DNA of 64,000 bases from Botryllus schlosseri (Eukaryota), in assembly GCA_051294905.1 (NCBI GenBank), contig CM119372.1, forward strand, positions 4,776,001 through 4,840,000. The letters run 5' to 3'. Below the pieces are notes generated by a model. It did not search any database, was not told the DNA's origin, and worked only from the letters and a program-made list of their open reading frames with translations. The position numbers were made by a program, and so were the translations under genes. Positions 4,301-41,600 of the stretch are shown piece after piece. How positions within the stretch are numbered: the first letter of the stretch is position 1; each line of letters begins with the position of its first letter.

Positions 4301-7300
4301 GTATCTCGTCTTGATTATTTCAGGGGCCACGGGTTGCGGCGTTTTCTTCCGTCGTAACGAAGGCAGCCGCGGGAGCATGCTGCGCTTGTTACCTGTACGA
4401 GTGGCGTTTCGAAATGGGATACTTGAAAATGAAAGGGATGGAGTTACCTGTCGCTTCTCCGGCGCTGCTTGCTACGGATGTTTGCGAGCTGCTGAGACTG
4501 GACGAAAGACTTATTCTTTGGGAAACTGGTGTTTCTACAAATGATAATAATACGTTGCAGGTAGCAGGACATCGAAAAATGCTATGAAGAATAGCAAATT
4601 TGGTTAGACTTCAGCTACTAGGGCGGAGGTGCTCAAGCTGTTGGCCATTAGAGTGGAGTGAAAAAAAAAATTGAATTTCAAAAAGTGCCATTGATATTTG
4701 GTCCCAAATCTCAAATGCCCAACAAAATTTTGTTGTTAAAGCAGCAATATGACAGATTGTAACATGCAAATTGGCATCGCAAACTTAGTAAAACCAAGCG
4801 ACATTTTAATGGCGGTCTAAAAATCAATGATTTGCTTGTAACTTTTATTCCGAACATTTTCAAGACAAAGTTCTATGGAAGGCAGATTGTAACATGTTGC
4901 TTCCGCATCTTTTAAGCCCAAAACTAGTTTTCTAGCATAAGCGGTTATCAAGATATGGCAAAATTAGCTATTTTCGGCTCGTTCGGTGAAATTGCACTAG
5001 AGGGTGCAGGAACCTGAAATCATGATAGAAGTAATTCATTTGAGATTTAGGACTAAATATCAAAGGCACTTTTTGAAATTCAAATTCCTCTTTTTTTCAC
5101 TCCACCCTATTGGCCATGTGGTTGTTTTCAGACACCCACAGAGCTTGTATGGTATATAGTTAGGGCTGCCATTCCCTCCTTGTCCTCAATACACTCCAAC
5201 TGGTAATCAGGACGCGACGGGGGCTTCAGACATTTATTGGGCGAAAGTGATGACTAGGGCAAGATGCATTGCTATATCAGAAAAAAAGTTTTGAATCATA
5301 TTTTCAGACAACCACGCAATTCCATGGGGTAGGCAATAAAATTTGAAAAAAATTAAATTAAATTTTATTAAATAAATCGAAAACTCTTTTTAAATAGCCA
5401 TGCTTCTATAGGTTGGAATTCTGCCAAAATTGGTGTGCAGCGTTTTTTAGGGAGCCTAACAATTTTATAAAGTAATAAGTAAAATTTGAAAAAAATTAAA
5501 TTTTATTAAATAAATCGAAAACTCTTTTTAAATAGCCATGCTTCTATAGGTTGGAATTCTGCCAAAATTGGTGTGCAGCGTTTTTTAGGGAACCTAACAA
5601 TTTTATAAAGTAATAAGTAAAATTTGAAAAAAAGGAAGTTATTTTTGAACAGCCCTAGCGAACATTCAAATATCTTGCAGTGGAAATACAAAAAAAGACA
5701 TCAACATATTTAACAAATAGCACCTTGTATATCAGATTTGTCGGTGAGGTCAATTTCATCCAATGCAACCGACAAAACCAGCGATGAAGGTGGTACCAAC
5801 GACTTTCGTTTAGCCGCCAATCGATTGTTCTCATCGGAGTCATGCGACGCGGTAGGTGTTGAATTGCCGGAATCATTGGCGAATGTATCGTCCTCCAGGG
5901 AGATAAGTCGACTGGACTTCTGAGATGCTGTTATGACGACAAAACCAGTTCAACAAATCAGCTTGGAATGGAAAAGAGGGACTTCAAATCTTACTTCAAT
6001 GACTCTTGGAGGTGCAGAACAGCACCATACAACACAATAATAAATACATAGAGAAATAAACCCGAGTATTTTCGGTTGACACTCGTCAGGGGTAATCGTC
6101 AGCAACTAGTAGAGTATTCAAAAGAACTGTGTATACAGCATTTGTTGTGCTTCTTGGAGGTACAGAACTTCAGTATACAATTGAATATTATATTCATATT
6201 GAAATGAAACCCGAATATTTTCGGCTGACACTCGTCAGGGGTAATCGTCAGCAACTAGTAGAGTATTCAAAAGAGCTGTGTACACAACATTTGTTGTGGT
6301 TCTTGGAGGTACAGAACTTCAGTATACAATTGAATATTATATTCATATTGAAATGAAACCGGAATATTTTCAGCTGACACTCGTCAGGGGTAATCGTCAG
6401 CAACTGGTAGAGAATATAGAGATGAGAATTTTCTACTAGTTGCTGACGATTACCCCTGACGAGTGTCAGCCGAAAATATTCGGGTTTCATTTCAATATGA
6501 ATATAATATTCAATTGAACACTTGTTGTATAACCATCATTTTCAGTACTCAAGGTGATAGTGATTAGTGAAGCACCAAGTATCTATGTGGTAGAAATGGA
6601 ATTATATCTATCTTTATAAAGTTTGTTGATAGTTGAAGGTGTATAAAACGTTTTGGCAGCCGACGTTATTCTCAAAATGCAACTGCAGCTAAGGATTTTC
6701 GTGAAATGTCCAATTCCACTCCTTTCATCTCTGTGGTTGGTGGTCACATCACATCTAGAGCGCAGCAGCGTAAGTAGTAGTAAAAGTATATATTTGCATC
6801 ATGTTCAAGAGTGAATGGTCATAATTACCTGCCTATTGCATATGTATCATGTTTGCAGCGTACGGATTTTAAAGTATTTGTCATTCTGCGTTATTCACAG
6901 AGATGTACCAGAAAATATTGAGTCGTGGGTTATTGCCAAAATATGCGAGATTTCTCATCTTAAACTGCTACTTCATAAGCACTGGGTTATATACACTGCA
7001 ATTCTACATGACGTAGGTTTGCCTGCCTTAAAATCTGCACACTGTCCACACTTAAATAGCACGATGACTATGTAGACCAACTGCATCAAATTAACTTGAC
7101 TCACCTTCTGTTTCATCTTCATCCTCGGAATCCGTTAGGTAGCGGATACTACCAGTTGTGTCAAATCTTTGCCGGCCGTGTTTTCTGAATACGAATTTCA
7201 ATGTTGCAATGAAAAGGACAAAGCAATCAACAAACAGTCTTACATATATTCTTCATCCTGCGATGTCGACTGCAATCCATCACTCATTGAACTTGAAGTA

Positions 7301-10300
7301 TTGAGTTCTGCCTGCTGGGTTGTCGGTATGTCTTCATTCTCGCTAGTAGTGATAACGGATGTTTTTGAAGTATTTACCTCTTCCTGCTGGGTTGTTATCA
7401 CGTCCTCATTCTCAACAGTAGTAATAACGGATGCATCATTTCCCTTGCTATCTTGTTCAACAACATCGAACAAGCTCTCTGGTGGTAATACTTCCCCATT
7501 GATTTCTATTATTGGAATACTGTCCTCTAGGCTGTAGTCTGGTTTTGCTTCCACGCCATCATCAATATGTTGATACGATGGCGTTGATTTTTTAGCCTCT
7601 TCCACACTCGACACCAAGGTTTCCATTATAGAAGCGAGTACAGAGTCCGCTATTAAATGATAGTTGTGCATTGGATCAACTATTTCATCAAGACTACCAA
7701 AGCTATCATCATCACTTAAGAAATATTCCTTTTCAGAAGACGAGTATCCGTCCGACGCAGAGTCTACAGGTGAGATACTTGACCCAGCATGCTCAGTGTG
7801 CGAAAAACTGTCATCCGCCAGTTCGTTTTGCTGACCATATTCATCCGATATCACTATTGTCGGTGGCAATCGCGGAGGAGATTCACGGTCGACTATGTTC
7901 ACAATAGGATTCACATTAATACCTTCCTTGACAATATCAGATGGACTTTCTTCGATTTGCAATGCTGATTTGACTGCAGGTTCATCCTCTGCCGGTTGTA
8001 CCAGTTCGCTGACATCAGCGCTAGTAATCATTTCCGCAGACGACAGTTCTTTATCATCTTCTGTATTGACAGACTCTTCACTGCTTGATACACCCAACAT
8101 AATCGACGGAGCAGTCACATTCGGTGCTTGTAAATTCGCTTCTACTAACGTTAGACTAATTTCCGAATCCGCAGACCGTTTTGTTTCAGAACTGTCATCA
8201 ATAATTGAAGAGATGAGGCTTTCACGAGTGTGTTCTCCATGTTCGTCAGATGTAGCCTGTTCATTATTAATGACAAGCTCACTGCTGTTCTTTTTATCGG
8301 TCGATGGTTGAACTACTTTAGGAATATTGCCGGTTTCTGTGGTTACTGTTGCCTCAGATAGATCGATTTGATCTGGGTTATCAACAAGTTCACCAGTCGC
8401 TTCTCTTTTTGCCTTCTTTTTCTTTCGTAACGGAGGGGGTGGCGGTGTATCAGTGATAAGATGTGTTTCTGAAGCTACGGTCTCCAACAGCGCCTTTGAA
8501 TCTTCCGCATTTGGAATCGAGGTATTATGAGGCACACTTTTAATATTGGAAACCTCAGGGTTTTCACGGGGCGCTTGTGGCAGATCAATGTCGGGTTTCA
8601 TACAGGCTTCACTACGGTTGAAACATTCTTGTGTTGTGTCATTAGGTTGCACAGCATGGATCTCAGACGCATTCAGATCTAATGATCCTGTCTCCCCATC
8701 TGGAGCAAGTTGCTGCGCATCAATTTCCTCAAGAGGCAGAGAGTCCACATTTTTATCATCATCTGACAGAATACTTTCCACAGATAATTTTGGCAGAATA
8801 TTATCTGCCTGTTCATGAACAGTGCTAATATCTGCATTAGCATCTGCATGGATACCGGGTAAGGTTGAGATGTCCTCGCTTTGTGACAGGTCTGTATTGG
8901 ATTGCGCTGAAGATACATCTTCATGAAATATGGCCGTTGTCTCCAACGACGTTCGATCATAGAAGGAATTTTCATGTACTACATCTGCATCACTTGCTGA
9001 AGTCACATTCGCAGTATGTGTGATATTTTGGAGCATCTCTGGATCTGCCGTATCCAACTGTGGGGTGTTCGCAATGTGTTCCATCTTATTGTGAGAATCA
9101 TCAGTCTGTTCCTGACATTGAACCTGTGAATTTTCGACTGATTGAATATCAGCTATCTCTTCATTGGCATCATCTAGTTTCTGTGTAGAATCTAGTATCA
9201 TTACCGGTGAAATAACTGGTTGTGAATCACCAAGTACACTTTCCGAAGGAATGATTGGAGTAGGGGCTTTCTTTTCTGTCAAACCAGAGTCAAAATCTGC
9301 AAACATTGGATCATTCGAGGCAGTTGTTATATTATCCTGCATGACACTGCGATGAGCCAAATCAGATTCAACCTGAGGAAAAGATTCAGACTGCAATACA
9401 CCATGAATGGGGGGTTCCGAAATATTGTCAACTTCCATTACAGTAGGTATTTCTGATGACAATTTGATGTCTGACTCCATCTCAATGACTAAGGAAGCTA
9501 CTTTATGATCTTCATCTGCCACGTGGCCATCAGTCAACGGCTCCTGTATTTCGATGGTGTCCTGAGACAGCACCTCAGAATCAGGCATATTAGAATCCAT
9601 ATCTGTATCAGACTCAGTGTGCTGGTACAGGGGTGTTCCTGATGCAACCTCAACATTATCAACCGGTAAAGTATTCCTCTGCAGATTAGTACTTTCACTT
9701 TCCGAATCAGCAGTTTCAGTCAAAGGTATATCTTGATTTGTATCATCATCAGTATGCTGGTACCCGGACATTTCCTCGATATTCTCAACACTATCAATGG
9801 CCAAAGTGTTCTCCTGTGATTCGATAAGAGAAGCCACCTGAACTTGGGACGTGGTAGTTTCATTCTCTGATGGCTTATCAGATTTTGTGACGAGCACACC
9901 TTCCGTTAGCTCCATATTTTCATCTGTCGGCTTTTCCGGGGTGAATGCAATACCGCTATTTGTCGGAGTAATATGTTCTGCAGCTACAAACAAATTTTCA
10001 ACAGTCTGCGGTTCAGAGGTTGCTTCACTAGCTGAAATTTCACTTGCACCCGAGAGCACTGAAGTTTTGATAATACATTCCATTGATTTAGACATTTTTT
10101 CCTCATCATTTTCAGAATCTAGTGAAGAATGGACTTCAGAAGTAATTGAAGTCAGATTGGTATCGTTCGAAGACTCTGGAGGAGTTATCGTGGGTGTCAA
10201 AAGCACATGAACATCTGTGGGTTCTTTTTCGAACTTCACTTCATTGTCAGTTTCAGTACTACCGATGATATGTAACTGGTCAATCTCTGAAGAGAAATGC

Positions 10301-13300
10301 AACACTGATTGGGCTTCATCACTTGTAACAACCTCGGCATTGGTGATGTCATGTAGTGGAACATCTTGAACAGGCTCCAGGTCATTCAATGTCAAAGAAT
10401 TCTGTTCGTTGCGGGGCTGAGCATTTTCAGCAGTACCTGAACTCTGTTTCACCTCTTGAGAGAGCATTATTGATTTACTCTGAGGTGACAAATCTGCATT
10501 AGGCTGTTCTGACAGTAAATTCTCATCACTAATGATGCACACGTCTCTGTCAGATTGAGCATTCATTATTGATAGGTGGTGATCACTCGCGTTTTCGATT
10601 TCCAAAGACATATTGATTGGTTCAATTTTCTCACCAGCGTCGACAGCCCCAGCAGGTTTATTTACCGTTAATACGATTTCAGTACGATCTGCATCATTGA
10701 ATATTGTTGAATGATCTTGCAACTTATTGTGATCAGCATTACCAACATTTTCCTTGACAGGACCAGGGAAACATTCATCTTCAGTTTGCAAGACATCTGG
10801 TTTCTTTGAAGGTCTATCCACATTTAAAGCGAGCTGCTGGTCGCTACATATTTCTGTTGCATCCAATGCCACAATTGGTAGTGAAATATGTTGTGCATTC
10901 TGCAAGCCTGTTTCAGCACTGTTATTTGACGATACCGATGCTTCCGAGTCTTCCAGCAAATTTGGAGTTATTTCAGGTCCAATATCCATTGTTTGAGGAA
11001 GAGTAGAATCACAAGCTGGTTGATGTTCAGTTACAATTTCCTCGTCCTTAGATGTCAACAAATCATCCATTTCATGGTGGTGCATACCAGCAGTGTCAAG
11101 TGCAGAATCAATTTGAGACGGAGCGGTAATAATATCGATTTTACTTTGAGACACTGGAGCAATAGCAGATTGCTGTAAAGACAAACCCATATCTAAGTCT
11201 TCTTTTTCCGTAAATGCTTCCACGTTAGATTTAACGTTTTCCATCGATGCAATCATATCTTCGCCAGTGACATCGTCATCATCGTTCATGTGATCTTGAG
11301 CATTTTCAGATCCAAAATCGGTCTTCGCAACATCAGCAGCAATAGTAACTCCATTGAAGGATGAAATTTCAGTAACAACGCTTGCGGATATGTCATTGTC
11401 GAATTGTAAAGACACGGCACCTTCACCCTCATTCTCATTATCAGAATTATCAGAAAACGAAATAGTGTCACCATCCATTTTCATGGGCTCCAAATTATCC
11501 CTGATGACATGGAGAGAGTTATTTTCCACAATAACTGAAGCATCGGACAAATATTCTGCTTCCTGATGTTTAATATCCTCATCAGAATGTCCGGTTTCAA
11601 CGACCTTAGTATTCATGGTCGATGCAGTTTCATTAATCACATCCACAGATGGTGACTGTGAAATCTCAGCCTTTTTGAAAGACTGTTGCTGCTCTTCGGG
11701 TATTTCTATGCCACCCGACTCAACTACCGACCGTACATTCTGTGAACTTTCGGCTTCATTCGAAACGATTTCGGGATCAATGTTTTTTCCAGCGTTATCC
11801 ATCAGTTGTGCATCAGCAGATGCTGGCAGAACAATGTCATCTTTGACCTGATCGAAATCTGAAACTACATGAGTCTCGAATTCCAAAGAACCAATTATCG
11901 GACCATCTGCATTTCGTGCTATGTCATGGATTTCATCTTCTTTCAGGATACTGGGTTGCTCTGGAAATATATGGGTGTAGGTTTCAAATCCAGCGATCAA
12001 CGCCCCTTGCAAAATATCACTTTCGCGGGCTGACATTGTTGGTCGATTTTTGTCTGTCCCATTGTCCACAGTTTGTGACTGCGCTGAGTCAATTGATTGA
12101 TCGATTGAGTATGTACTACTGCCTGATGAAATTTCAATACAAGTAGTGTCATTGTCAGTCTTGATTATATCGGAAGTGCTGTAAGCGGTATCTTCCGCTT
12201 CAGGATCCTGATTCTGCACCAACTCATTCTTTACTTTATTGGCGTCTGAAGTTGAAACATCTTGATTTGCAGTCTGATTTTCACTTGAGATGGATTCACT
12301 TTCCACATCCTCAAGTTTCATTTCGGATTTCTTTTCATGATTCACTTCCAAGGACGATTGGTCATCAATTTCCGATGCATGTTCTCCTTGCAACGGAACT
12401 GGATTCTCGGATTCTTCTCTCAAATCATCTTCGTTTATTGTCAAAGATTCATCCGTTATGATATCGTCGACATCTTCAAATGCGTACGTTTCACGCTGAG
12501 TTTCAGATTCATCTATTTCACTCGGTTCACTTTCTTCCGGTATGACTGGCAAGCCAGAATATCTTCTGAGAGGATCGGTGACAATATCTTCCCAATCGGT
12601 ATCGTAAGCTTCGTAAGTGGTTGAAGGTTCTGGATCCAATTCAGGATAGGTGAATTCTTGATTCGGAATTTGCCTTATTCCATACTGCTTTAATGCAGAT
12701 TTATATTGAGAAATGGAGTCATCATAATCATCTGTAAATGAGCTATCATTGCCATCAGCAGGGTTATAGTCGTTTGAACTTGAACTGCTGCCGGATTCTG
12801 CATCACTTCCATCGTCAGAAAATAATTCCCTGTCAATGAATACGGTGGATGGTACTGACGAGTAATTGGTGTAGAAGCTTGTCGGCAAGGAAACGGACTT
12901 TTTAATGGATGACGAAGAAGACTGTGCTTCCGTGTTCCCTTGCACTTTCACAGAAGAAAATTCATTGTCCTCCGTATATACATATTCAATATTATCGGCA
13001 GATTGAGAATGCATAAGTTCAAGCTCATCATAATCTGCTTCCGGAAGTGGTGGCGGTGATTGATATTGACCACGGTAGTCACTGAGCACTTGATTGCCAT
13101 CTTGTTCATCCCGAGTCAAATGGCCTTCACCAAAAACTTCATCTGAATTCTCAACCGAAATGATGACAGCAGTGTTGCTGTCATATTCCGCATCTGATGG
13201 TATACTTCCATCTACTTCAGTTAATCCGACTATTGGCGGTATTTCTCCATTGCTTTCCTGGCCTGTTGTGATATTCATGTGCTGATCATGGATATCATGA

Positions 13301-16300
13301 CCTTCAGCTCCCAAAATGTCCTGATCGCTGCTCTCCGAAGGGTTGTCTATCGATCCAATATTCCTTTCATCCTCGACATTATTTATGAATGAAGTGGACT
13401 CTTCGTCCTTTGGAAAACTTGTCATATTCTCATCAATTTTTAACAAGCTCTCATTGCCCTGAGTTGACTCGATTCCTTGTCTGCCAGCTGGCAAAATATC
13501 CATATCGTCGTCTGACATGGATTCCATTAGCGACATTGGCTTATCTTCAAGTTTATGAGCTGGATCGAAAGCAGAAACTTCTCTGGCACTATATGGCTGT
13601 GTGTGATGTATATCTTGAATGTTATCAAAATCATTTTCAACCAAGTCAGTTTTATCATTAGCAGAAACTGACGTTTTTTTCAGATTCGATTCCATATTGT
13701 TGTGAACTATTTCAGAACTGGCTTGCCAACTGCCTTGTTGCTTTTTCTCACATATTTCTACCAAGTTATTATTAATCCTCTCGGGATTACACTCACCATT
13801 CTTCTTGGAAGATTCGATCACTGGATCCATAGCCAAATCATCAGTCAGGTTTATTATTTCATTCTTTCCACTCAGCTGTCCAGCATTGACATCTCCTTTT
13901 ATCTCGGGGATATTGAAGCCAGTGTTTGCCGTTTTTAATAGCGAATCATCTACTATTTCACATGCTTGGCCGCTATCATTTCCAGATGTAATATCCTCAT
14001 CCTCAGTTGCCTTTTTCTTCTTTTTCCGTGTCGGAATTACCGGTGGGGCTGCTTCTATTGAATCGGACATTTGATTTGAGGGAGAAGATTCTGAAATTTG
14101 ATGTTCCTCGTTTTCAACAGCAACCAGGTTGGTGGTGTCACTTGAATCCAGCATATTGCCATCATCAATATTGTTCCTTTTCTTTGTTCGAACTGGAATG
14201 ACTGGCGAGGATTCCTCATCTTCGTCTAAATCCTCAATCGTCGATGTAGTATCCAATGTTTCATATCGTTCGGTGGTATCAACGGCGTCATCACTAGCAT
14301 ACTCCTTGTGATCAATACTTTCGTCACTAGAACCATCTGACATGTATTCTGCAGCAAGCTCCTCTTCCACAATTGATATTGCAGTACAGATGATATCATC
14401 CACAAACCGCTCAACAAGTGCTGTGGCAACAGATCCACTGAGCAAATCTGAAGTTGAAATTTCATTTTCGAAAGCATCTGCATTTCTATTATCCAATTCT
14501 TCAAGTGAATCGGTGTCTGTGATATCTGCTGATGCATCGGATGTGATGGTTTCTTCGGTTTTCTGTGGGTATACTTCTGTAGACAAAATGGAGTCTGCAA
14601 TAAATTTACCTTCTGGTAAAAAAACATTTGAATGGTTTTCATCTGTTACAGACCCATCCTCAACATTCTCAAAAGAGACTGCTTTCTTTTCTTCTTCTAC
14701 GAATGAACTGGGCTGTTCGTTATCTGGAGCGTTTCCCGATATATTCTCTCGCGTGTCCTCTAATTTATCATTGGACATCAAAACTGGAGAAACCATGAGG
14801 TCGTCAGAGTCGATTTGAAGTCCATGAGGTTCAGAAGATGCACGTTCGATCACAGACGATTCATCTTTAACCACAGGGTTAATGCAAGTGTTTGGTCCAT
14901 CAGTCTCACTTTTGCTCAGACTCATTTGATCCACATAGTCGATACCAACCTGGCAAGACAATCCTGTGTTGTTTTCAGGATCTAATGGTAATATGTGTAC
15001 TTCGTCTTGTATTTGGATAGGACTTCCGACGCTTTGTTTAGATTCAGGCATACTTGTAGCAAAAGAACTGTCCTCATTGAGGTCAGAAGTAGCACTTGAG
15101 TTGCACATATCATCCTCCGTATGAGTTGTAATATTAGAGGTATCGTGTTTGTCTTCGTCACCAGTAAGTCGTTTACCTTCACTCAATGCACATTCACTTA
15201 CATCATTTATTGAAGTTGTTTGCATGTCATTGAATGCACTGGACTCGGTATAAGTTACAGTGGACTCACTAGGCTCTAACATTGAATGATCACTGTCAAT
15301 ACTTGCGTCACTGTTCCGTGAACAACCACTGTCTTTGTTTTCTGTATCATCATTAACTATATTTTCATCTTTACATAAATCCAAAGCACCATCTTGATTA
15401 ACAAGCAATTGCTCATTGCTGTCAGACATCATCACTGATCTAACATCTGTTGTTGCACCTGACAGTCCAATCATATGATCCCCTTCATATTGAGTGTGTT
15501 TTGATATACCCTCTTGAAACGCTAGCTCACCCACACTATCCACGCCATCAGTAGAAGTGGTAATATCATTGAAACTTTCAAGTGTGTCTTCTATTATAGT
15601 ATCACATTTTTTGGAAACATTTAACGATGAGACGTCCTGTAATAACAGATCATTGCTTTGTTCATCATGAACAACCAAATAATCCTTTGTCCCATTGTTA
15701 GCTTGTGGATTTTTGAATGGCTGAAATGATTCGACATCATGGCATGATTCGCCAGTTTCAACACCAAATATACCCTTTTCGGTATGCATCGAGTGTTCAG
15801 CGATATTACCAACTACAAATTCAAAACCGGTGTCACGTTCAAAGGTTAATATGTCTTCCCAATCTTTCTTATTGGTCTTTCCATTTAATGTATTATCTTG
15901 CAGCAGATCAACATTTTCTGTGCTTGGTTCCATTGTAACACTGCCCAGTGGCAACATCACATCTTTGTCTGGCATTGGATTGTCACTATTTTCAGGATTT
16001 GACAGTAATTCGGATGTATAAACATCATGGCTCAGTAGGTCTGGCAGTAAACTTTGCTCGCTCTTATTAAATGCATTCTCCTGATGGACAATATGTTCAT
16101 TAGATATTTCATCTTTTTCTGCAGACCCGTTATCTTCAACAACCAACAATTGGTTTTCTTGTGGCATCATCATAGATAGTTCGAGTGAGACAATCTTGTT
16201 TTTATCAGTTGGAGTTACGGGTGATGCATCATGCTGCTCCGTCAAATGACAGTCATCACCATCAGGCAATAAGGTAGTAGGTTCTTTAAAATCAACCTGT

Positions 16301-17418
16301 TTTCCATCGCACATTGCCAAATCAATTAATCCACTATGGTCTTGCTGAGGCTGATCTATAATGGGTTTTTCAGATAGTGTTAGCAATACGCCTAAACTAT
16401 CGGAAGCACTTGTAGCAATTACAGGTGATTTAGCCGATTCAGGTTCATGAGCAATGCTTGGTTGAGTGGCTGCTAAAACACGGTCATCACAATTTGCTTC
16501 AGCAGCAGTTGAACTTGCTTCACTTTGCAACAAACAACTCACGGAAGCATGATGCGGAGAGTTCTGATTGGTACTTTGCAAAGTTATATTACCTTCTACG
16601 TTGAGGGATATTAATCCAGATTGATCAAAAAAGTTTGACTGGTCTCCTGATTTTCCCACTGCACTGGTTACATTCAAAGGCGACAAATCTTGCTCTACTG
16701 TAGCTTGTACTGGTGCCGTACCACACTCGAGCAGCTCATCAACATTTTCAGCATTCCTCTCATTTGGTTTCACATATTGATCACCAACGGTTTGTCCTAT
16801 TGAAACCAAAGCATCTTCTGAAGAAATATCAGCTTTATCCATTTCAATGCTTCCACCGAGTTTGTTAGGGTCCGAGAGAACAAAACCTGTCTGGATACCC
16901 GCTGTATTTTCAATCTCATCCAAATCAAACAAGCTATTATTCTTGTTAACAACTACAGAGTCACTTATTTGAAACAAGTCACTATTTTGGAATCCAAACC
17001 CAGACAAGTCCCTGTCAGCTGTTGCCTCACAAGCACCGGCCTCCAATTGCGAAAACCCACCTGAAAGATCAACAATGGAGTTGTTTGCTTTAGTCTGGAT
17101 TGATTCGCTTGTATCGAAGATGCCCAACACGTCATCGGTATTTGCGGAAGTGTTAGATAGCATCAGCGAATGTACATTTCGGTCCACATCAAAACCTGAT
17201 TGAGACGCAGAGTTGCTAGCTGCATTCCCAACATCAAAATCCAGCAAGCTACCACCTGGTACATTTTGTAATGCTAGACTGTTGCCAGCTATGTTGCTGT
17301 CAGCATTGTCAAATTCCAATAAAGACTGATCAACTGCATTCGACTCGCTGGCATTGTGTCCATTTTCTGTCTGTGGTACATCATTCCCGAATATATCCAA
17401 TATATCATTTGCAGACAT
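1386..17418 (-). CDS. Giant acidic protein with C-terminal BNIP-2/BCH (CRAL-TRIO-like) domain; BNIP2/BNIPL/ATCAY/PRUNE2(BMCC1) C-terminal family; ~3,731 aa
   Basis: Exons (minus): 17418-7244, 7184-7105, 5927-5724, 4534-4448, 4392-4150, 2855-2756, 2681-2478, 1488-1386. All are GT-AG with consistent phases. The C-terminal exons give KRKSLVPPSSLVLSV, WETVTIKNIEYRIDEALVQPYKRVIAHGG|FYDEK...YDWIMDNIFL|YVLATVELL...IDYRLKKNVEAFYILNSSFYFRT|...KMKYVKNMAELK...VPPEIAK*. This parallels BNIP2 (VDMKAIEPYKKVISHGG, YLMDNLF, YVIGTLELL, LRKNLK). The start ATG at 17418 is inferred; an in-frame TGA lies at 17445-17443. Confidence 0.88.
4649..5109. mobile_element. hAT-like MITE with ~70-bp imperfect TIRs
   Basis: tagagtggagtg...cactccacccta; TSD ttggccat at 4641-4648 and 5110-5117. 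Confidence 0.85.
6209..6242 (-). ncRNA. Minimal type-I hammerhead ribozyme motif, sense to the host BCH-gene pre-mRNA
   Basis: The reverse complement reads acccCTGACGAgtgtcagccGAAAataTTCgggt. Variant copies lie at 6060-6093 and 6358-6391. Confidence 0.72.
6452..6485 (+). ncRNA. Minimal type-I hammerhead ribozyme motif
   Basis: Stem I accc/gggt; CUGACGA box; 1-bp stem II (G..C); GAAA box; palindromic ATAT stem III; UUC cleavage triplet. Confidence 0.72.
7244..17418 (-). CDS. Single 10,175-nt coding exon; D/E/S-rich, predicted intrinsically disordered
   Basis: Uninterrupted ORF 7240..17424. It ends at the donor TAT AT|GTAAGA (phase 2), which joins the 7184 acceptor in frame across a 59-bp intron. 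Confidence 0.9.
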
Positions 17419-17960
17419 TGTCAAAATTGAAACACATACTTCTCATAGCATATAGAAGAAGATAACAGAAAATATAGTCCTTGAGCTCACGCAATCTTGT
17501 AACTATACATTTAATAAAGGCCCTTGTTGCTGGGAATCACTTTCACCACATCTGTCACGTACCCAACACCAAAAAGTACGCTGCTCCTGGTCAATCATTA
17601 ACTTCAATCAATACGGAGCCCCGAGTCCCTTTTTGCATGTATGTTTACCTTACTGTCATATATTTGTTGGAAACAAGAATTGGCCTTGAAACAAACTATT
17701 CCGTGCCGGCCACGCAAACAGCAAACATTGAATGCAACATTCCAATGCGACTTATCAATAACATCAACAGCAAATATACAATTATGCCCTCGGCTTTGCG
17801 GCAAGGGTTGGCATCAAAGGCTAATAGATTATATTGATAGAGTCAAGTAAGGGGTACGGTGAAATGAATAGCTTAATTTTGTACCTATGCATGAATTGAT
17901 GTCTTCCTAAATGTAAGCAAAATTCACATTCCTGATTTGAAGAAGCTGTGGGGAATATCT

Positions 17961-20900
17961 TCAACTAATAGATGATTGTACGATTGGCAGCAGTTGTTTT
18001 CTTGATGCCTTGACATTGTGCATTCTGCAATATATGAAGTTTTGTGGTATTGTATTTGTGCAACATCAGGTAAATATAGGTATAAACTGAGCTACCGACA
18101 ATACAGGGGTCAGTGTGTACAATATATAATATTGGTTGTAAACAGGGTAAAAAGAATCATAACTTACACGCCTGAGTTGGGAACATGGCATGGTGTTGTA
18201 GCTGCAACACACTCATGTAATAATCTATTTAACTTCAAGTTTCAGAGCATATGAAAAAATCTACCTGAAATATGTGAACTTTTCTCCATCATCGGATACT
18301 TCCACTTCTAAATTTAAAATGGGATTTTGTGCTTTCTTCAAGGCATTCTCCACCTGCAGAGCAAGACATTGTGATGATATCAAGAAGCGCAGTTGGAAAG
18401 GTTGGAAAAGTTGGAGCTGAGCACAATGATTCGAGTACTCGAATGCGAGTCGAGTGTCGAGCGATTTACCAGTAGTAACCAAGAGTACTTGTCAATGAGC
18501 AAGTATTTTCTTCCACAATGGTAGCCTTGAAATTTCGATTGGTCGTATCACAGCATTCAAAATATTTAATACTATACTATCATCAACCCGCAGCATGGGC
18601 ACAAAGCGCAATTAAATAATCATGGTCAGATAGTTCCAAATTATTGTTCGTGACTTGCAGCTGGCATAGTGGCATTATTTTCTTGTGGTGGTAAAAATTG
18701 ACATATTTGAACTTCTGAATCATTATTGTAGGACATTTAGGTCAGTTGCAAATGATATCCAGCACACAGTGCTGATTCAATGGCCACTTTCGCATAACTC
18801 ACATACCTCATTCATATACATTATATGGTGGTATAATATATCTTGTATAAGACATTTGCTAAGTAATTAGTTGATAGAATGATCGTATGTTGACAAATAT
18901 ATTTCAGCAACATATTACCTCATGTTTCAGTTCAGGTTGCTCCGCGTAGAGCAAAACAGGTTTGTAACTATTACCGGACAAACCACTCTCAACGGGATAC
19001 AATGCCACCAACAAATTTGCGTTTTCTGCCTTGACCAAGTCCGATAGACTTTGCTTTGCGAGTTTGTCTTCGAAAACCCTGTTTATCCCGGCGTGAATTG
19101 TACTGAAAATGACCTTCACCGATTTGTTTGGGTTGTGAATTGTCTTTTGGTCCTGAAAAAAGGATTTGGTAGACAAAGCATGACAGTTGTTATTTTAATA
19201 TAGCCTATGGTTTTCACTTTTCAGTGATTTGATCAACCAGAAGATCCCAGGTTTTTTACAAATTTAACCTCCACACTGAGTGTGAAAACAAAATTGAGAA
19301 CGTTTTTGGTAACTACTGTATGATATCTACCTTTAACAAGAGATCTTTCACTGTGAGCCCGTCCACACAATACTTTGCATCACACAGTTGTTTAAACAAG
19401 CTGAAAATTGTTGGTGTCAGTAGAGTTCCTCAATTTTAGAGCTACAGAAGATTATGTCACCTGGAGATCTCTTGCTTATCCTCATCCTTCCATAATCTCT
19501 TAATTATCTCTCTATCGCGCACTGTTACCTTACCAGCAGATTCGGACAAGTTAACAGTGTCTAACAGAATAGGACCTGAATCAGAGAGACTTGAGTAAAA
19601 TCAATTGAATCATTTTTCCAAGTTCGCAAGAATTAAAACGTGAATATTTACCAGATACGAGTAGCGTTAGTTCTCTCATGTCGGAGTCGGCGAGAATTAT
19701 TCTTCCAGAATCAATGCCGCGTAATATCTTCTCTGCTATTAATGTCATGCATGATCCCACAGGAGCAATTTCAACCTCAACTTTGTCATCGAATGTTTGC
19801 GACTGTGGCCTGTGATCAATAATCTCCTTGACGTAGGGAGATAGGAATTCATCCGACCTGTGAAATAAAAGAGAAGCTAGGAGTGAGTTGCCATTCTGTC
19901 TCCAAATCAGGACTCTTTAAGAAAGGAAGTCGTCGCCCAAACTGTATTTTGAAACTTTTCATCAATATTTCGAAATCAGGGTTATTGAGTCCAAATACGA
20001 CTTGAGCAGGGTCATAACGATTCAAGTCATGACTAGAGTCGAGTCGCGATTTTTTGGTGACTAGACTAGACTCGAATAATTTTCTTAAATAGGGAAAATG
20101 ACTTGACTCGACTAGGGTCATCTTGTCTTGAGAGTAGGACGGCCTACGGGGAAGAGATCTAGTTGCAAAGCATTGGGATTCTTACCTAACCAAATCCAGT
20201 TTTGTTATATTCGATTTAAAGAATTCCAAACGGATCCACTACAGAAATCATATACTGCGCCCTAAAATGCATCTGTGCACAGCACTACAATGACAATATG
20301 TTTACTGCCAGTGCGCGACTGCGCGTGGCAGATCTTTGTTTCATTTAAAAGTGTTGAAGTCTACTATTATTCAGTTGCACAAGCCTATTTAATGCAGACA
20401 AAAAGATTTTCTCTATAACTTACAAATTTCTCATTAGTGCATGTTGTTTCGTGTGTGTAACTGTTTATTTACAAATTGCGCTGCTACTATAGTACTGTAT
20501 GTCCGTATACTTCAAAGTTGTTATTGTTGCCATTGTTACAATGCGAATTTCATGGTCAGTGATTTTTATTGTTGCATCATACATTGCCTTTTTGGTTTTG
20601 CTTTTAAATTTGTTTAAATCCCTTCAATGCGTCGTTAACTCTTGAAAAGAGGCACCCGAAAAGTCTTCGAGTTCAGTAAATAATATATATTCTTTTACAA
20701 TGGATGTTGCATTGAAAGCTTTATTCCAGTTCTGTACCACGAAGCAGCTATTCAAGACAAGCATTTCATTGTAACTTCGATGAATAGTAAAGTTACCTCA
20801 TTATTGGTGTTCCGTCCGTTATTACTAACAGGTACGTGTAAAATATGGCCAGAAACTCTGTTAAGAGTGAGGAAAATTAGCGCATTCTGGATGTTAGCCA

Positions 20901-23840
20901 TTCTATATCGAGCAGAGTTGTAAAAATGCTATTGAACATGATTTCAACTTCAAAATGAACGGTGAACACAACAATTTGGACTTGGACTCAAGTCACAACA
21001 CTACGACTCGACCCTATGCACCAAGACTTGGACTCGAACTTGACACTGTGGCGAATTGAAAATGACTCGGTCGTGACTCGAGTCGAAACTATAAAAGTAA
21101 GATTGACTTGTGACTTGGTTGCATGTAGCTGTAGCATGGTCACATCTTGCAAAATATGTGATAAAGATTGAAAAGCACGAAGACAGGGGTGGCCAACCTT
21201 TTCGGCTAAAGGGCCACTTGAATATTGATGTCCGTTTTTAGTGGTCCGATAGGAGCGAGAATCGGATTAGGTAACGGTAAAAATAGGACTCATATTACTA
21301 CGTATCAAAATCCATAACAATTATGCCATGAAAACTATGTGTACATGTGCTAGACCACGGGTTGGACACCCCTGCACTAAGGTATATGACAGTACCTTTG
21401 AAGGACGTGGTGATCAACGAGAGTGACATGTGCATCCAGTGCATGTGTTCCAAAGAATTTCTCGAAACTCAAGGTATCACGAAATATCAAATCCTTCTTG
21501 CCAACGCCACATCTCTGCAACACATAGACTGTTTCTGTCTTCAGTCTAAACATATCCTCCTCAACGTTGAGAACCGGAACGTGGCATGTGTGGTCATTTT
21601 TGGGGCGTGTCTGTAAAAGAGTAATGTATTAAATCATTCGGGTTGCCGTATGAGTTACATGCTGCGTAGGGTTGTTCAAAAATAACTTAATTTTAGCTCA
21701 TTTTGGCTAAAAAAAACGTTGCACACCAAATTTGGCTCAATTCCAAACAGTAGAAGTGAAGTTATTGGAGTAACAAATTTTGGATTTGAAAAAAATAGTA
21801 TTTACAGTACCAACCATGAATACTATTATTTCAAACCCAAAATTGTACAAAATAAAAACTTAGTTTCTAGCCTATTCGTTGGAATTGAGCCAAATTTGTT
21901 ATGCATCGTTTTTTTCATACGACTTGATAATTTTATGGGGTTGCCAGTAAATCTTCAATAGCTTCTGTTTAACGGGTTGGAATTGAGCCAAATTTAGTGG
22001 GCAATGTTTTTAGCGAACCTAACAATTTCATCGAATAGCCTGTAAAATTTGAAGAAAGAATTTACTTTTGAACAACCCTAATGCGACTGAGATAGCCTAC
22101 AAAACGACCTACCTCTGAACAAAACCAGGCGTATAGTAGCGCAGACAGAGCAGAGTCTTGATCGCATGACTCGTTTCCGAATATAAAATTGTATCTCTCG
22201 TTCCGTGGATTAGCGTCGTTTTCTTTGAACTATAGATTATTTGCACTTCAGTAACAAATATAGGTATATTCATTTTTTCAAGGCCCATTCATAGTCGCTC
22301 CGCCCCGAAGACACTTTTATCCGTTACCTCAGATATGAGATCCTTTCTCTCGGAAGTGTGGAGGGTATATCCGTGATCCTAAACCTAATCCTGGGAAGAA
22401 TTTGCTAGCGATATACCCTTCTCCCTTCACCTGGGTCTAGTGAAACACTGTCGACTGATGACTAACATGACTTGATATGGTGCATGTCTCAAAGAAGTGC
22501 CGTTATTTTAGGTAATCGAAATGTCGATGTTGGATTGCGAGAAAATGGTAGTATCATTCATAAGTCGAAGATGATATATCCAAAGATATAATTGAACAAG
22601 CCATTTGGGGTACAGAACTTCAGAATAAAGCGAAACAATAGGCTAACTTCATATTGTTAATATATAGAGAGAGAGAGATATGATATTCTTTCTCGCCTGC
22701 ACCATCGAGATGCTTTGGCGACGGAGTTGCGATACGGCCCCATGAGGTCATCTAGTCTGCGCCCCCGTTTTTTTTTTCTCCTCCATGCTATCCGTGATTG
22801 CTGAGCGCCTAGCAGGATAGCTGCGGATACCATTTTTCGAGTCTTTGGTATGACCCGGCCGGGGATCGAACCCACGACCTACCGCTCGAGAAGCCGGACG
22901 CATAACCATTACACTATCTCGCTCGGTGTTAATATATTCGCTAAAAGCTGCGACAGCCGATTCTCTGTCGCCAGAAGGAGCGCCTCTACACTCTTAGAAT
23001 ATTTTATTAATGTTTTGTGTCGTTGTCTCCGGTTATTTATAACCAAATATGTACTCGTTAACGTTTGTTTTATATCGCAACTACCGTATCTTGCCTGTCT
23101 ACTAGTTGTTTGTTTTTGTTATTATTACGTCATACTACTGACGTTCGCTACTGATGAGAGTCAGTCGAAAAGCTTTCAACGAATAAATTAACAATATGAA
23201 GTTATTGTTTCGCGTTGAAGATATATTTGCTAAATAATTCTTTTGTTCAGAAATACGCCTAATGGTGTGAAACTGTGCATTGATCAGACGAGATATTAAT
23301 ACCACTGGATTAAAGAAATTTTCAGTAATGGCGAATATTGTTGAAAGTAAGGCTTGCCTCCTTGCACTACCCACTCAAGTAGATGTTTCAGTCTACTTTA
23401 AATTCCACTTGATGGTTTTGAAGTAAAATACTTTATATAAATTTTATTTCGTAAAGGAGTAAGTAGTTCTGCATCAATTTTACTGGTGAAATCGTCATAA
23501 CGACTGGGCGCAATAGGCCTTGTATCTTGGTATCTGAATATTTTTAGAAAAGTGCACCTAGTGTTATTATAGTAATTTAATGTATTGTTACTTACGAAGA
23601 AACTACTTGTAATTGAGTAGGAATTTACACATTACTTTTACTTTAACCGCGTCTGGACTTTCATATGACCAAGAACTCTTGCTAATTTGAAATGTAAAAC
23701 AGTTTTTGCTGGTCATCCACGAATCACGATTAGATTATACCCATGTTCTGAGCTCAGTGAATTATTTTAAAAGAAGGAATAAATATATTTACCTTATTCA
23801 CTAGTTCCGTGCGCTTTCCCCTTAAGAATCTCGAAAGCAT
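17961..23840 (-). CDS. prune: Prune exopolyphosphatase / DHH-DHHA2 phosphoesterase (PRUNE1-like), 9 coding exons, ~385 aa
   Basis: Exons (minus): 23840-23793, 22229-22113, 21610-21396, 19857-19652, 19575-19461, 19400-19331, 19152-18919, 18353-18265, 18024-17961. All are GT-AG with matching phases; total 1158 nt. Translation: MLSRFLRGKRTELVNK|FKEND...FIFGNESCDQDSALSALLYAW|...HVPVLNV...LIFRD...VTLVDHHVLQ|...EIIDHRP...VGSCMTLIAEKIL|GPILLDTVNL|...AKYCVDGLTVKDLLLK|DQK...|...KASRKQLLPIVQSSIS*. These match the Prune motifs GNEXCDXDS, DHH, DHR, VGSC, LLD and SRK. Confidence 0.93.
20637..20673 (+). ncRNA. Third-family minimal hammerhead motif, U3-A8 core variant
   Basis: aactc-TTGAAAA-gaggcaccc-GAAA-agtc-TTC-gagtt. 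Perfect 5-bp stem I and a compensatory C3G8->U3A8 change. Confidence 0.5.
21667..22080. mobile_element. MITE (TAGGGTTGTTCAAAA TIR)
   Basis: 15-bp TIR. Related sequences at ~5255-5657 (with a ~138-bp internal duplication) and ~24755-25147. Confidence 0.7.
22667..22922 (-). mobile_element. tRNA-derived SINE with a Meta-SINE-like central domain and (TC)n tail
   Basis: Minus strand: A box TAGTGTAATGG, B box GGTTCGATCCC, then GGGTCATACCAAAGACTCGAAAAATGGTATCCGCAGC...GCTCAGCA. Near-identical copy at 49222-49481. Confidence 0.85.
23144..23183 (+). ncRNA. Second-family minimal hammerhead motif with partly decayed stem I
   Basis: ttcgcta-CTGATGA-gagtcagtc-GAAA-agc-TTT-caacgaa. Palindromic AGCT stem III, 2-bp stem II, 5/7 pairs in stem I. 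Preceded by a T-rich tract. Confidence 0.55.
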
Positions 23841-26391: not shown

Positions 26392-27439
26392 TAGGGCGAT
26401 TTTTTTTTGACATGTCAAAATTTGTCAAAATTGTAGCGTTAGGCCTACCGTTGTAAACGGCTAATTGTCTGCTCATTGTGAATCATAAACGGTCAAATAA
26501 AACAAATAGGTAGACATGGTGTTATGGTCAACGTACCGCAATATCCTATCTGAAGAAAGACTTCTTGGGCATTGCATCATTCTTATATTACGAAGCGCAT
26601 GATGAAAAAGTGTGATGTAGACAACATTGTCAGAATGAAGCAACACAGTGTGTGACCAGCAGTGTACACTCAACTTGAGTGTTGTCAGCCAACAACTGCT
26701 ACTGTTGAGCGTCCTTGGCAAGCTTCTTAGTAAGGACATGCACTTTCTACCCAAGAATGTAGGAAAGTATCTCTCGTTGTACTACAAGAAAATTTAATTA
26801 TTTCTACCATAATACGTATCGTAACCACTGGAATTCTTAATAGGGTCAGATTTCGCTAAAATAGTGTTTTTTTTTCATGTAAAAAGTGGCCTGTTTCTAT
26901 GCCAGAAACGTTTTTTCAGGCCAAATTACTGCGTTAGGACAGCCAGAAATGAATTTTAACATTATATGGGAAAACACCTAATTTGCATACAGCTTCTTTG
27001 AGGTACAGAACTTCAATATTTCAATTGAATAGTATATTCATATTGAAATGAACCCGAATATTTTCGGCTGACACTCGTCAGGGGTAATCGTCAGCAACTA
27101 GTAGAGAATTCGAAAGAACAGCGTATATCAACAATCGTAACACAAAATATGACGTCACCAGCACGAAATGTCGAATACGAGAGCGTTGAATGTACTATTT
27201 TTAGATGATACACGAACTCTTTTTGTTGACACAGCCTTGGCTGGTGTATTTGATTACCCCTGACGAGTGTCAGCCGAAAATATTCGGGTTCATTTCAATA
27301 TGAATATACTATTCAATTGTAATTTGCATACGTAAGGTCAAAATTTGGTCAAAATTCAGTTTGTTTGGGTCAAAAAAAGTCAAAATTAATATTTTTTAGG
27401 TCAAAATTTACCTTTTTTTAGGTAAAAAAAAACGCCCTA
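26392..27439. mobile_element. hAT-like MITE (TAGGGCG), host to the hammerhead element
   Basis: tagggcgatttt...aaacgcccta; TSD atgatggc at 26384-26391 and 27440-27447. Confidence 0.8.
26991..27319. mobile_element. Same hammerhead repeat as an inverted pair, flanked by a 12-bp target-site duplication
   Basis: Intact cores at 27052-27085 (-) and 27256-27289 (+). TSD taatttgcatac at 26979-26990 and 27320-27331. Nested in MITE 26392-27439. Confidence 0.75.
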
Positions 27440-33068: not shown

Positions 33069-34329
33069 AATCTACTATAGGTCCTGAAGTAGGTGCATCC
33101 AGACATCGGAATCTCCAGTAAGGCCATGAGCATTATTTGGTGATATGATTGTTGATATACAATGTTCATTTCAATTCTCTATAGTAGTTGATGACGATTA
33201 CCCCTGACGAATGTCACCCGAATATATTCGGGTTTATTTCAATATGAATATAGTTTTCAATTACATACATCAATTAAAAGCTCTGCAGTATATATTCAGG
33301 AAATAACAAGAACACACACTAATCACAGACTAAATAAATATTTAATTTTCAAGAAGATATAGACTATGTCAATGAACATTTAAATATGTTAAGACTTCGT
33401 TCTCGAATTGTAACGGGTTATGCTATTCCCAATAATCCTATTGCTTCGATTTTTTTTCTGGAGTCTTTTACACACAAAGGATTGGTACCGGATCGTCGTA
33501 CTAAAAGGCAAAAAAATCCATTTATAGTAAGCCAAATGAAACCTAATTTATTGCAGAACGGCGAGATAAAGAGGTTCGTCGCTAAATAAAACAATAATTT
33601 ATGCATATTGAAACAGAGAATCATAAATCGATAATTTCACTTCGTCGGAAATCTCAAGACTTTGTACTGAACAAATCGCAGTCTACAGAGAGACTGCCCA
33701 ACGGCAATGAGTCAAAACAGAATTTATTACCATTTTTACAAGCGGCCAAGACACCCTTGCGGCTTTATACCGACCGGTGACCCAATTTTCGTACAGGTAT
33801 AGCTCGACGCGAACGCGAGCCGATATCACCGAAAACATTACCTTCGCCATTTTGTACGGAGTAATCGCTATTCGCACCCGTGCCATTGACATGTAGGTAG
33901 ATAGTGTTAGATAAAATCCTTACGTATTAATACGAATTACCAAATAATTTCGTGTTTGCGCTTCATGTTTGATGCGTATTGCAATAAGAAAGACCAATTA
34001 CTCGGCTATTCCTATTCAACAATTGTGCTTACTGTGGATGTAAGAGCAGAATAGCCACGGCCACGGCCACATTGGTAATAGTAATCAACGATGTAAAATT
34101 TGTACTAGTTTTCGGGCTCTTATTAGGCTGCAGGTTCTAATGAGGCTTGGTTTCGGGCTCAAACGTAATCGGGCTGTAGGTTACTGTTTCGATGATTTGC
34201 TTACTTTTCTCAATAAAAATACACCAAGCTGACATTTACTAGGGCTGGGCACAATGATTCGAGTACCAGAAAGTGCTACTGCAACCCACTCTATGGCACA
34301 AGTATACGTTTGTTCATCACGATGAGGGT

Positions 34330-38623: not shown

Positions 38624-41600
38624 GTCTGTAGATACCATCGGTTTTCAACCGCAAGCACGCGTCTACTTTTCTGCCGGAGCGCCAGATGCATCACAATTCT
38701 GTATCTCAATTTCAAAATACAAGGTGCTGAAAGAGTGTTTTTCAACCTATTGATAGCTCTGGCCCACGATCTGTTTTGAAAATAGCCCCTGGCCTCTATC
38801 AAAATCCCGCTCGAAATATTCAATTAATGATATCTTGGTGACCTATAGTAGGGACAATTGAACGACATGACTGACTTCTTGGAGTTACATAACTTCGATA
38901 TACTGTAGCCTACTATTGAACAATATATTCATATTGAAATAAACTCGCCTAATTCGCTTGACACTCGTCAGGGGTCATCGTCAGCAATTAGTAGAGAACT
39001 TAAAAGAACTGTGTATATCAAGAGTCACATCACCATTTTTTTCAGTACCTGATATGATAGTGAGCGCTATGTATCTATGTGGTTTCTTCTCTTTCTAATG
39101 GACCAGGAAACCAGAACATGAACTATGGGATCACGTCCATCGTTTAAGGGGCGATGTGCTTTAAATATGATGCGGCGTCAAATTATAGTTGAATGCGTGA
39201 AAACCCCCAATATCTTCGGATGACACTCGTCAGGGGTAATCGTTGGCAACTATAAAGTTATTGTCTTATGGATAATTTTGTCCTAGCGTGGCAATAAATA
39301 TCCATCCATTTGCCACAATTTTAAATGACGGGTAAAGCTATATAACGCTTGCGTAGCGAAGGGTGTATAATCTCCAGCGATTGGGAGATAACACTCAAAT
39401 AATGTCATCATTTCCAATGCTTGTATTTTGCATATGCTTCAATTCTCTCGTCAATCGTTGTGCGATCTTTGAACATATGTTGATTCTGATTTCATTAAAG
39501 CGGACAAAATGTAATCGTGATTACTCTTTTGATGTAATCGTAATAACAATCGAATAAGTTGTGTTTTCGCGTAAACGTATTCACCGATGTCAGGAGGAAT
39601 CGTAATCGTGATCGATTACATTGGCACAGTGATCGCGCCATATCTGAACTTAGTGATTAGCGGTCAGCGTCTAAATGAGAGGCATCATTCACGAAGGAGG
39701 GTACATTGCATATCCAAAAGCAATATTCCCAATGTGAAATAATTTTACCAGAAATTATTCATCCACTGTGTATAGTTTCACTTGTAAACATATGCTGACG
39801 CCGTGAGAAACTTGGTGCGGACAACTGCTGGTAATTGCATTGTCCATTACCTCGCCAATGGGGTTGAATAGCATTACAGAATGGCCAGTGGAGAACTTCT
39901 TAGAGGTACAGAACTTCAACATACTATTAAATAGTATTGGACTTCATTTCATATAATATTCAATTGAACAAAGACCAGTCTACACTGCTAGCGTAACGCT
40001 TAAGTCACGTCGATCGTAGTATGAGAGTTTCACATTCTCGATGAAGGCTGATGTAAATTCGGCCTAATCTGCAACTCCGTTTTCAATGTGTCATAGGTTT
40101 CCCGTCAGAAATGCGTCACATTATGAACAGGCATGTCCACAAGAATCGGCACAAAATTCATGCAATAGGCGACACTCGTTTGTACATAATACAACACTAG
40201 CATAACATATTTAACACATATCGACTTTATCTCCGGCTTACTTATATGCGAACAGAATGTACGGCACAGTATTGATTTTGCGTTTTTTTTTATCATAGCT
40301 CATTCGTTTTGCCACTGTGCGACGACGTTAGGTTTTTAAATCAAAAGTAGTAATATAATACGATGAAATTGAAAAGATGCATGCACAAAGCACCATCCGA
40401 GAATATATACATAGATATTCTTGTGCTATGTAGGAACTTAAGTTGAGGTAGGTGATATCGACAGCAAGTAGATTGTATTGCTAGAGATTTTTTAGACTCT
40501 CCACGCCCGTAATGATAGATTAATAGATGTCCATCATCTGCACAGGTTTGAATGCTGAGCATGATGAGGGCGATTGAATTTCAGGACAACGTGCTGTCAC
40601 TCCATTATCTGGCTACCCTTGACTTCTATCTTCGCAATATAATCCCAACGGACCAATCGGAACAAGATAGAAGATCGTCTAACCTGATCGAGGGCGTTAA
40701 TCTGCTACTAATCTGTATTGGAATACTTTATCCTCACTTTTGTAGATTATGTTTGCACATCGCAAGTAATTTTATCATTGCTGAGCAACCTAACGTGACA
40801 ACGAAAATCACGCCCAGCGCAACATGATTTGCAATGCTTCCAATGTTGTTGTCGTATTTGTGTTGTATATACCGGAATGCGTAACGCCTCTGAAATTATA
40901 GCTAGTCAAGACGGCGCTCATATCGCAGATTACCGAAATACCGTCAACGCAATCACGACACGCGGCGCCTTTGAAAGCCCCACCGAGCCTGACATGGCCG
41001 CAACAATATACATGTCGGAAGCGATACCACCTTTCCTTTCGCTTATTTACACTGTGTTCTAATGAAGAGGCATAAATCCAGGGAGAAGTGACGTGAGTTT
41101 GCGCGAAGAGGCTAGTAATTGCTCATTTCTCCAACTTTGTAATTACTGTTTTACCATGAAAACAAATACGAGACGCACGCAGACGGCGTGGTTTCATTGA
41201 TCTCAGGCGCCACTGAGATCAGAGCGCTCCACGCGCGTTATATTGTGTTTGCAGTCATATTTTGTATCACGAAACAATATTTCATTGTTACCATCATATC
41301 ACAGAACCAGATTGAATTCCATCTAGTCCCGTCCGCGTCCGCGAGGCTGAAAACCGCCTTGTAATAAAGTGAGTTAACACAAGTCAGGGATGTTCCATGA
41401 CGATATTCCGACACATATATGCTGGCGGTCCTTGTGATGTTTTGTCGTGACTGATTTACAATGAATTAATAACACATGACGTCGGTGAGCGTAACAATAC
41501 GGGATTTATAGCTACGGCACATTGATTGCACAATTAGACTTGCAAATACAATATTTCATTACAACGGCCCAATAAAGCGAATGGGTGAATTTCTTGTGTG

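Follow-up and report, generated by a model that had tools for sequence, protein, structure and literature searches.

The short array at positions 6004-6516 of the window, by which we mean the whole 64,000-nucleotide stretch of Botryllus schlosseri DNA that was analysed, consists of the cut-off ends of a Penelope-like element (PLE) and is, by most of the sequence features tested, a truncated insertion of the Penelope/Poseidon type. We regard it as very probable that these truncated 3' ends came together in place, through a head-to-head insertion at the edge of an older copy and one subsequent tandem duplication. The array is ordinary transposon debris and not a retrozyme family, and the hammerhead at this locus is carried along passively, and is decaying, within the predicted intron of a host gene.

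The array and its parent element

A repeat search of the 64-kb window returned a 149-bp tandem of 2.8 copies on the minus strand (6004-6412), and an inverted-repeat search returned arms at 6321-6415 and 6428-6522 which are 94% complementary. The preliminary description of a head-to-tail 149-bp repeat followed by an inverted copy is thereby borne out, and the span which it gave, 6004-6517, needs only a small correction at its right-hand end, the inverted arm ending at 6516. The parts of the locus are collected in Table 1. Truncation at -28 in the unit with C3 at 6387 and at -29 in the inverted arm means that neither constitutes a 149-bp unit. In a predicted fold of the whole array (-219.6 kcal/mol overall), the inverted arm and unit B form a duplex of ~97 bp; Rfam miRNA matches at the array were rejected as reflections of this inverted repeat.

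Table 1. Features of the array and its surroundings, in window coordinates; signed positions count from C3, the start of the hammerhead boxes
Feature	Position	Strand	Remarks
Predicted host intron holding the array	5928-7104	-	GT..AG ends; frame kept across exons 7105-7184 and 5724-5927
Unit C	6004-6148	-	Older diverged 5'-truncated PLE end, about -57 to +86 around C3 at 6089
Hammerhead of unit C	6060-6103	-	Damaged
Unit B	6149-6297	-	Sole full 149-bp unit with intact motif; likely local duplicate
Minimal type-I hammerhead of unit B	6209-6252	-	Intact; 6-bp pseudoknot, 4-bp stem I, 1-bp G-C stem II, palindromic stem III
Likely target-site duplication, left copy	6286-6297	+	A/B junction; again at 6137-6148, the B/C junction
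Unit A	6298-6415	-	Long-tail arm of the head-to-head insertion, -28 to about +89, C3 at 6387
Filler	6416-6426	.	11 bp; gap separating the two truncated 5' ends
Inverted short-end arm	6427-6516	+	-29 to about +60, C3 at 6456
Hammerhead motif of the inverted arm	6442-6485	+	Intact
Likely target-site duplication, right copy	6517-6528	+	12 bp, directly after the short arm; spotted by eye at the arm ends

The source of these ends was located in the same genome. Upstream of the hammerhead, several genomic copies extend into the final part of an ORF that bears a GIY-YIG-like motif, and following that ORF led to an intact element (L061) in which two hammerheads, 2,692 bp apart, flank an ORF of 848 aa, its ATG lying at +40 from C3 and its stop 105 nt before the next C3. 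The ORF matches RVT_1 (E 7.8e-9; 36 bits against a cut-off of 29.6) and carries DKG and YVDD motifs. A putative GIY-YIG domain fell short of the Pfam cut-off (E 0.015-0.029) and a full-length scan returned no GIY-YIG match, so that the assignment rests on a GIY-YIG motif pair with CxC between, visible in this ORF and in four other families. By inspection, the linker between reverse transcriptase (RT) and endonuclease (EN) holds no CX2-5CxxC zinc finger of the kind set out in the relevant description in PMC8557442. For one stretch of the ORF, identity was 98-100% in all 40 copies scored.

The array units align to about -57 to +89 of the 2,692-bp element and therefore correspond to its pseudo-LTR plus the first ORF codons; the 149-bp unit takes in ~16 codons and ends about 49 nt into the ORF. 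Identity to the intact element is 118/143 for unit C, 133/147 for unit B and 95.6% over 90 bp for the inverted arm. The proposed link to Penelope-like elements is upheld, in that an intact PLE with an RT ORF carries the same hammerhead end.

The family resembles the canonical EN+ Penelope/Poseidon PLEs, as portrayed in the relevant parts of PMC3846280 and PMC8557442, in its single ORF with RT followed by a putative GIY-YIG-type domain, its DKG motif, the cysteines between the two putative nuclease motifs and the linker in which no zinc finger was seen, as well as in its partial tandems, inverted 5'-truncated arm, ~35-bp one-sided tail, target duplication and a pseudo-LTR which takes in the first codons. 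It differs in target duplications of about 12-13 bp, those of the rotifer examples given there measuring 8-10 bp, and in array arms of only ~90-120 bp stacked on an older copy.

Related Penelope families are plentiful in this genome, with at least seven bearing long or intact ORFs and with thousands of young copies. A copy of the young element from which the array ends derive (L066, G000:C16:21220000-21226000) sits between two ORFs of a related Penelope family, near the start codon region of that family. The window itself holds another head-to-head insertion of the PLE family (26991-27321), with a perfect 12-bp target duplication, the long arm on the left and the short arm on the right, and older diverged ends of that family at 33134-33262, 38875-39252, 39889-39937, 44425-44657 and 51057-51193. 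Ends of two other Penelope families, compared by eye, lie at 20620-20757 (+), similar to L170 with its U3-A8 core, and at 23090-23217 (+), similar to L162, relative to which the pseudoknot has a compensated pair. With its related families and young copies the genome offers good material on the use of the hammerhead to the element and on the formation of inverted arms.

The hammerhead motif and its conservation

Three sets of hammerhead boxes lie on the minus strand, with C3 at 6089, 6238 and 6387, and a fourth lies on the plus strand, with C3 at 6456. A full minimal-hammerhead descriptor matched six times in the 64-kb window, against a mean of 0.02 and a maximum of 2 in 200 first-order shuffles; 6238(-) and 6089(-) are among the positions which pass it, and 6387(-) is not. 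The features of a minimal type-I hammerhead (core boxes, stems I-II, A15.1-U16.1 and an NUH triplet) are all found at 6238(-) and 6456(+), and these are also the two of the four array copies with the full family motif. At 6387(-), stem II is a G-U pair and a C-C mismatch adjoins the cut site, leaving stem I with 3/4 pairs, while at 6089(-) the stem III palindrome is broken (4/6), the triplet is CUC and the pseudoknot retains 5/6 pairs. The assertion that each unit holds the full motif thus stands for the boxes, which occur in all four, and for complete motifs in two. Stem III is palindromic as had been claimed, the palindrome being the 6-mer AATATT in place of ATAT; likewise the minimal type-I architecture had been recognised correctly, while a pseudoknot of loop II with bases 5' of stem I had been overlooked. 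In unit B the motif predicts a cut between 6213 and 6212. An Rfam scan of the array matched no hammerhead model at E values up to 10.

Conservation was examined by a protein search with the first 120 ORF residues. Thirty-two further stretches were fetched and 36 loci examined, three of them without the upstream region and some being broken copies with damaged motifs; one representative each of eight families was aligned. Seven of the eight have long ORFs, at about 56-69% protein identity. Across the related families the motif is placed 35-51 nt ahead of the start codon and comprises a 6-bp pseudoknot that joins loop II to bases 5' of stem I, a 4-bp stem I, a 1-bp stem II, the 3-8 pair and stem III. 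Paired states occupy 97.5% of the cells of this alignment, and double changes occur in 9/15 pairs: in 4/6 pseudoknot pairs, in 3/4 stem I pairs and in the change from C3-G8 to U3-A8. None of 500 shuffles scored as high and slid controls reached 26-43%, in statistics which ignore the kinship of the families and apply to a structure derived from the same sequences. The covariation check suggested at the outset thus came out in favour of the motif. Two families (L166 and L173, the latter with an intact 846-aa ORF) have C in place of U at core position 4.

Because covariation across the eight related families is strong, the motif is likely to be functional in the autonomous element, where it is likely also to be under selection. 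Lying 40 nt before the start codon, the hammerhead would cut multimeric transcripts as a dimer, aided by the pseudoknot, and its likely role is the processing of multimeric element RNA. Even as dimers, minimal hammerheads of PLEs showed weak cleavage in one study (PMC4209133), and another reports cleavage only with the protein of the element, the reaction being dispensable for insertion in vitro (PMC11167929). Activity has been shown for a metagenomic hammerhead that combines a 1-bp stem II with a pseudoknot, and there the pseudoknot is needed for fast cleavage (PMC3088659).

With the minimal hammerheads of PLE pseudo-LTRs, as characterised in the pertinent parts of Cervera and de la Pena 2014 (PMC4209133), the present motif shares its type I topology, short stem I, palindromic 15.2-16.2 region, G10.1-C11.1 pair, a U3-A8 core variant in some families and predicted cleavage as a dimer; a long helix II has been described for Schistosoma, in contrast to the 1-bp stem II and 6-bp loop II pseudoknot seen here. 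The metagenomic hammerhead of 2011 (PMC3088659) is alike in its single-pair stem II and in a 6-bp pseudoknot joining stems I and II, and unlike in being a type II ribozyme assayed in two-strand form, whereas ours is type I without a stable stem III. The pseudoknot pairing was not found described in the literature on Penelope hammerheads that was checked for it, and it may already be in print; a literature search on Penelope and hammerheads in ascidians found nothing. Conserved as it is, the pseudoknot offers a precise construct boundary for cleavage assays, one which earlier assays of minimal hammerheads may have lacked.

Insertion layout, dispersal and proposed history

Head-to-head pairs of the family allow the layout of the array to be compared with that of other insertions. 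Among 35 distinct pairs, a number which excludes five loci duplicating the window and derives from loci picked by sequence searches and not at random, 25 scored at least 12 for a target duplication, as against 0/60 mismatched-flank controls; the window pair counts among the 25 through an internal match, and L032 may do so too. Of these 25, 24 combine a long arm with a short one, the ends of the window pair lying at about +89 (long) and +60 (short). The duplications of the family mostly scored 12-15. That of the array itself has one mismatch and would score 10, a value reached by 5/60 controls, and the best match returned by the script there is the internal one; 6517-6528 agrees with 6286-6297 at 11/12 positions and with 6137-6148 at 10/12. 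Although this match is weak alone, it stands at both expected ends, and a 12-bp target duplication is likely. The old copy C yielded no target duplication when one was sought. Nested insertions with the target duplication inside an older pseudo-LTR also occur at L071 and L122.

An inverted 5'-truncated arm, a one-sided tail of 30-40 bp and a target duplication have been described for PLEs (PMC3846280, PMC8557442), and the one-sided tail can be attributed to the use of two internal RT start sites, as reported for an anole PLE (PMC11167929). The arm pattern in the window matches such insertions, in agreement with the earlier suggestion of a PLE-type tandem-plus-inverted layout. In a tally of the arms for an arm-specific base near -27, no difference was found at the position tallied, the variable position being -26. 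On the question whether the two arms derive from a single template, divergence within pairs was 0.6%, against 1.0% between pairs (15 pairs, one of which is an unrelated older copy).

The 495-Mb genome contains 3,460 copies (1,764 + 1,696) of the exact 31-nt core; together with the linked 848-aa ORF, with its RT and putative GIY-YIG-type domain, this speaks to the question, raised with the initial proposal, of copy number and a Penelope ORF sharing the terminus. Copies of the unit are another matter. A genome search with one unit gave 79 matches among the 40 of 1,035 candidates that were scored, nearly all of them partial, and the best matches to the whole unit outside the array reached 77-82% among the 40 scored. 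Fetched copies were mostly solo or in head-to-head pairs, with two fixed end points about 33-35 nt apart; in the first 30 exact-core loci by position, 3' ends fell at +51 to +67 in 17 and at +90 to +100 in 11, and a same-strand neighbour within 400 bp appeared in three entries, all from one compound locus. Same-strand core pairs with periods of about 123-153 and 154-184 bp gave at least 8 and at least 10 matches, respectively, against the 3,460 cores, these counts being lower bounds because the anchors are exact.

An exact-pattern search of the genome for the junction between 149-bp units returned two matches, both in the array. A dispersed 149-bp family was accordingly rejected. The claim of a mobile RNA family that is very short, non-coding and self-cleaving is not supported: the unit is a piece of a PLE which is autonomous and codes for protein, and its junction occurs only here. 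Dispersed units of 135 or 123 bp were likewise rejected, with two exact junction matches each, one pair being L071 and L003. The short tandems at other loci differ from one another in junction and in period (123, ~130 and 135 bp). About five 123-bp units of the same element end lie at L184:1809-2541, and four of ~130 bp at L119:1301-1928, both tandems being locus-specific and their hammerheads decaying. Such locus-specific tandems represent a concrete route from PLE ends to retrozyme-like arrays.

A different arrangement is found at L183:1008-2550 (G000:C1, about 37767500-37769050), where a head-to-head insertion has a 12-bp target duplication and each of its two arms repeats, head to tail, a 359-bp deleted unit spanning -121 to +247 (hammerhead plus ~207 nt of ORF). 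The unit is 98-100% identical to the intact element, and its junction gave four matches, all at L183 alone. Insertion as a multimer implies a circular or tandem template, and L183 is a better retrozyme-like candidate than the array in the window.

The identity with an autonomous element, the long and short arm pattern and the locus-unique junction are the observed basis for the history that we propose, alongside the mosaic composition of unit B, which resembles unit C upstream of C3 (56/59) and unit A downstream of +26 (62/64). An old 5'-truncated copy, C, would already have been present when the protein of the element nicked both strands about 12 bp apart. Reverse transcription, primed at two internal start sites, would then have produced the long arm A and the short inverted arm, each breaking off about 30 nt into the pseudo-LTR. 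Finally, unequal crossing-over or slippage between A and C would have copied 149 bp to give B, and with it a further copy of the target duplication. The sequence would be explained most simply by an old copy, an insertion at the margin of that copy and then one local duplication.

Host transcripts and alternative readings

The exons flanking the predicted intron join in frame behind a 10-kb exon, and downstream exons match BNIP2 (PF12496, E 3.2e-7) and CRAL_TRIO_2 (PF13716, E 4.8e-11), clear domain matches having been obtained in two of seven stretches tested. The host is thus predicted to be a BNIP2/CRAL-TRIO (BCH-domain) gene, to whose predicted transcript the three tandem copies are sense. 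Upstream of the BNIP2/CRAL-TRIO exons, the minus strand is open in one frame over 3,400 codons (7244-17442), and the encoded sequence is acidic and of low complexity; this layout resembles that of PRUNE2/BMCC1. Insertion of the array into an exon was rejected, since the phase of a candidate acceptor at 6582 does not fit that of the upstream exon.

Four RNA runs were sampled at 3-13% of each. In all four, the element end was covered on both strands and the ORF start was almost bare, and reads on the element end ran into unrelated sequence in 97-100% of cases in three bulk runs and 70% in a single-cell run, as would be expected for fragments inside host transcripts. Over position 6506, 0/544 reads in three runs carried the base of the locus; the host exons had no reads in the same runs. 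At one genomic copy (L126:1486), the adapter begins precisely at the predicted cut site in seven reads of run X22, on the strength of which some copies in the genome may cleave. This signal was not among the top positions for X20, X24 and X18, no pile of ends passed the threshold, and X22 also showed an eight-read adapter pile at a non-cut site.

Could the 149-bp unit be a non-LTR retrozyme, a non-autonomous family spreading as a small circular RNA? Animal retrozymes (PMC7229834; Li et al. 2026, bioRxiv 10.64898/2026.07.22.740005) do resemble it in their short head-to-tail units with type-I hammerheads and in their kinship with PLE pseudo-LTRs; PLE-derived retrozymes are proposed in the latter source, and consecutive tandem units which pass the descriptor (6238 and 6089) come close to its operational definition, under which the array might be counted. 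However, the array lacks the dispersal expected of a retrozyme (PMC7229834; bioRxiv 10.64898/2026.07.22.740005), and the confinement of the junction to this locus largely refutes the idea, to which the private junctions and periods of the other short tandems add. Retrozymes in the sections of PMC7229834 describing them measure ~170-400 nt and have canonical hammerheads, whereas the present unit is undispersed, shorter than ~170 nt at 149 bp and minimal in motif, with two of three tandem copies damaged. It also stops about 49 nt into the ORF, while the anole PLE needs the first 172 nt of its own ORF as template (PMC11167929; an analogy only). A retrozyme family is consequently very improbable. 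Still more so is the arrival of A, B and C in one insertion from a multimeric template, or a tandem created by misassembly, even though L183 shows that multimers of a deleted unit can insert whole and inverted PLE structures are said in PMC8557442 to trouble assemblers: the three units differ from one another, with C departing from A and B at about a quarter of 3' positions (45/61 and 46/61 identical, respectively), and the junctions carry right-hand flank sequence, unlike a pre-formed multimer.

A reading that shares the proposed history would have the array active at present, host read-through allowing adjacent copies to dimerise, so that the intron is cut and a 149-nt RNA, linear or circular, is set free as an incipient retrozyme. 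The tandem copies do lie in sense orientation in the predicted pre-mRNA, the family motif is conserved with covariation, and the intact 5' half of B or A could, we infer, complete a site with the cut strand of a neighbour in a dimer. Against this, two cuts in succession would be required to free a monomer, and the copies on either side of B are damaged; the inverted arm, which is transcribed before the tandem, is predicted to pair with B in the long duplex noted above; PLE minimal hammerheads are weak or protein-dependent in the reports already cited; and the locus base was absent from the reads over 6506, though the host exons lacked reads too. We consider present activity distinctly unlikely. 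A bolder version would take the locus as a snapshot of the birth of a retrozyme, in which PLE insertion at its own older pseudo-LTR gave a dimer-competent tandem, this tandem is amplified and a ~149-nt circle is cut from the host intron, these hammerheads owe to the pseudoknot a speed well above the published one, and L183 with its 359-bp multimer is the next stage, in which a deleted unit was reverse-transcribed from a circle and reinserted; this we put forward as an unlikely speculation. The preferred reading remains that of truncated PLE ends assembled in place.

Two further repeats lie close to the predicted intron. One is a two-copy tandem of 138 bp (99%) at window positions 5355-5633, and the other a pair of inverted arms, 4642-4717 with 5037-5116, about 320-420 bp apart and possibly a MITE.
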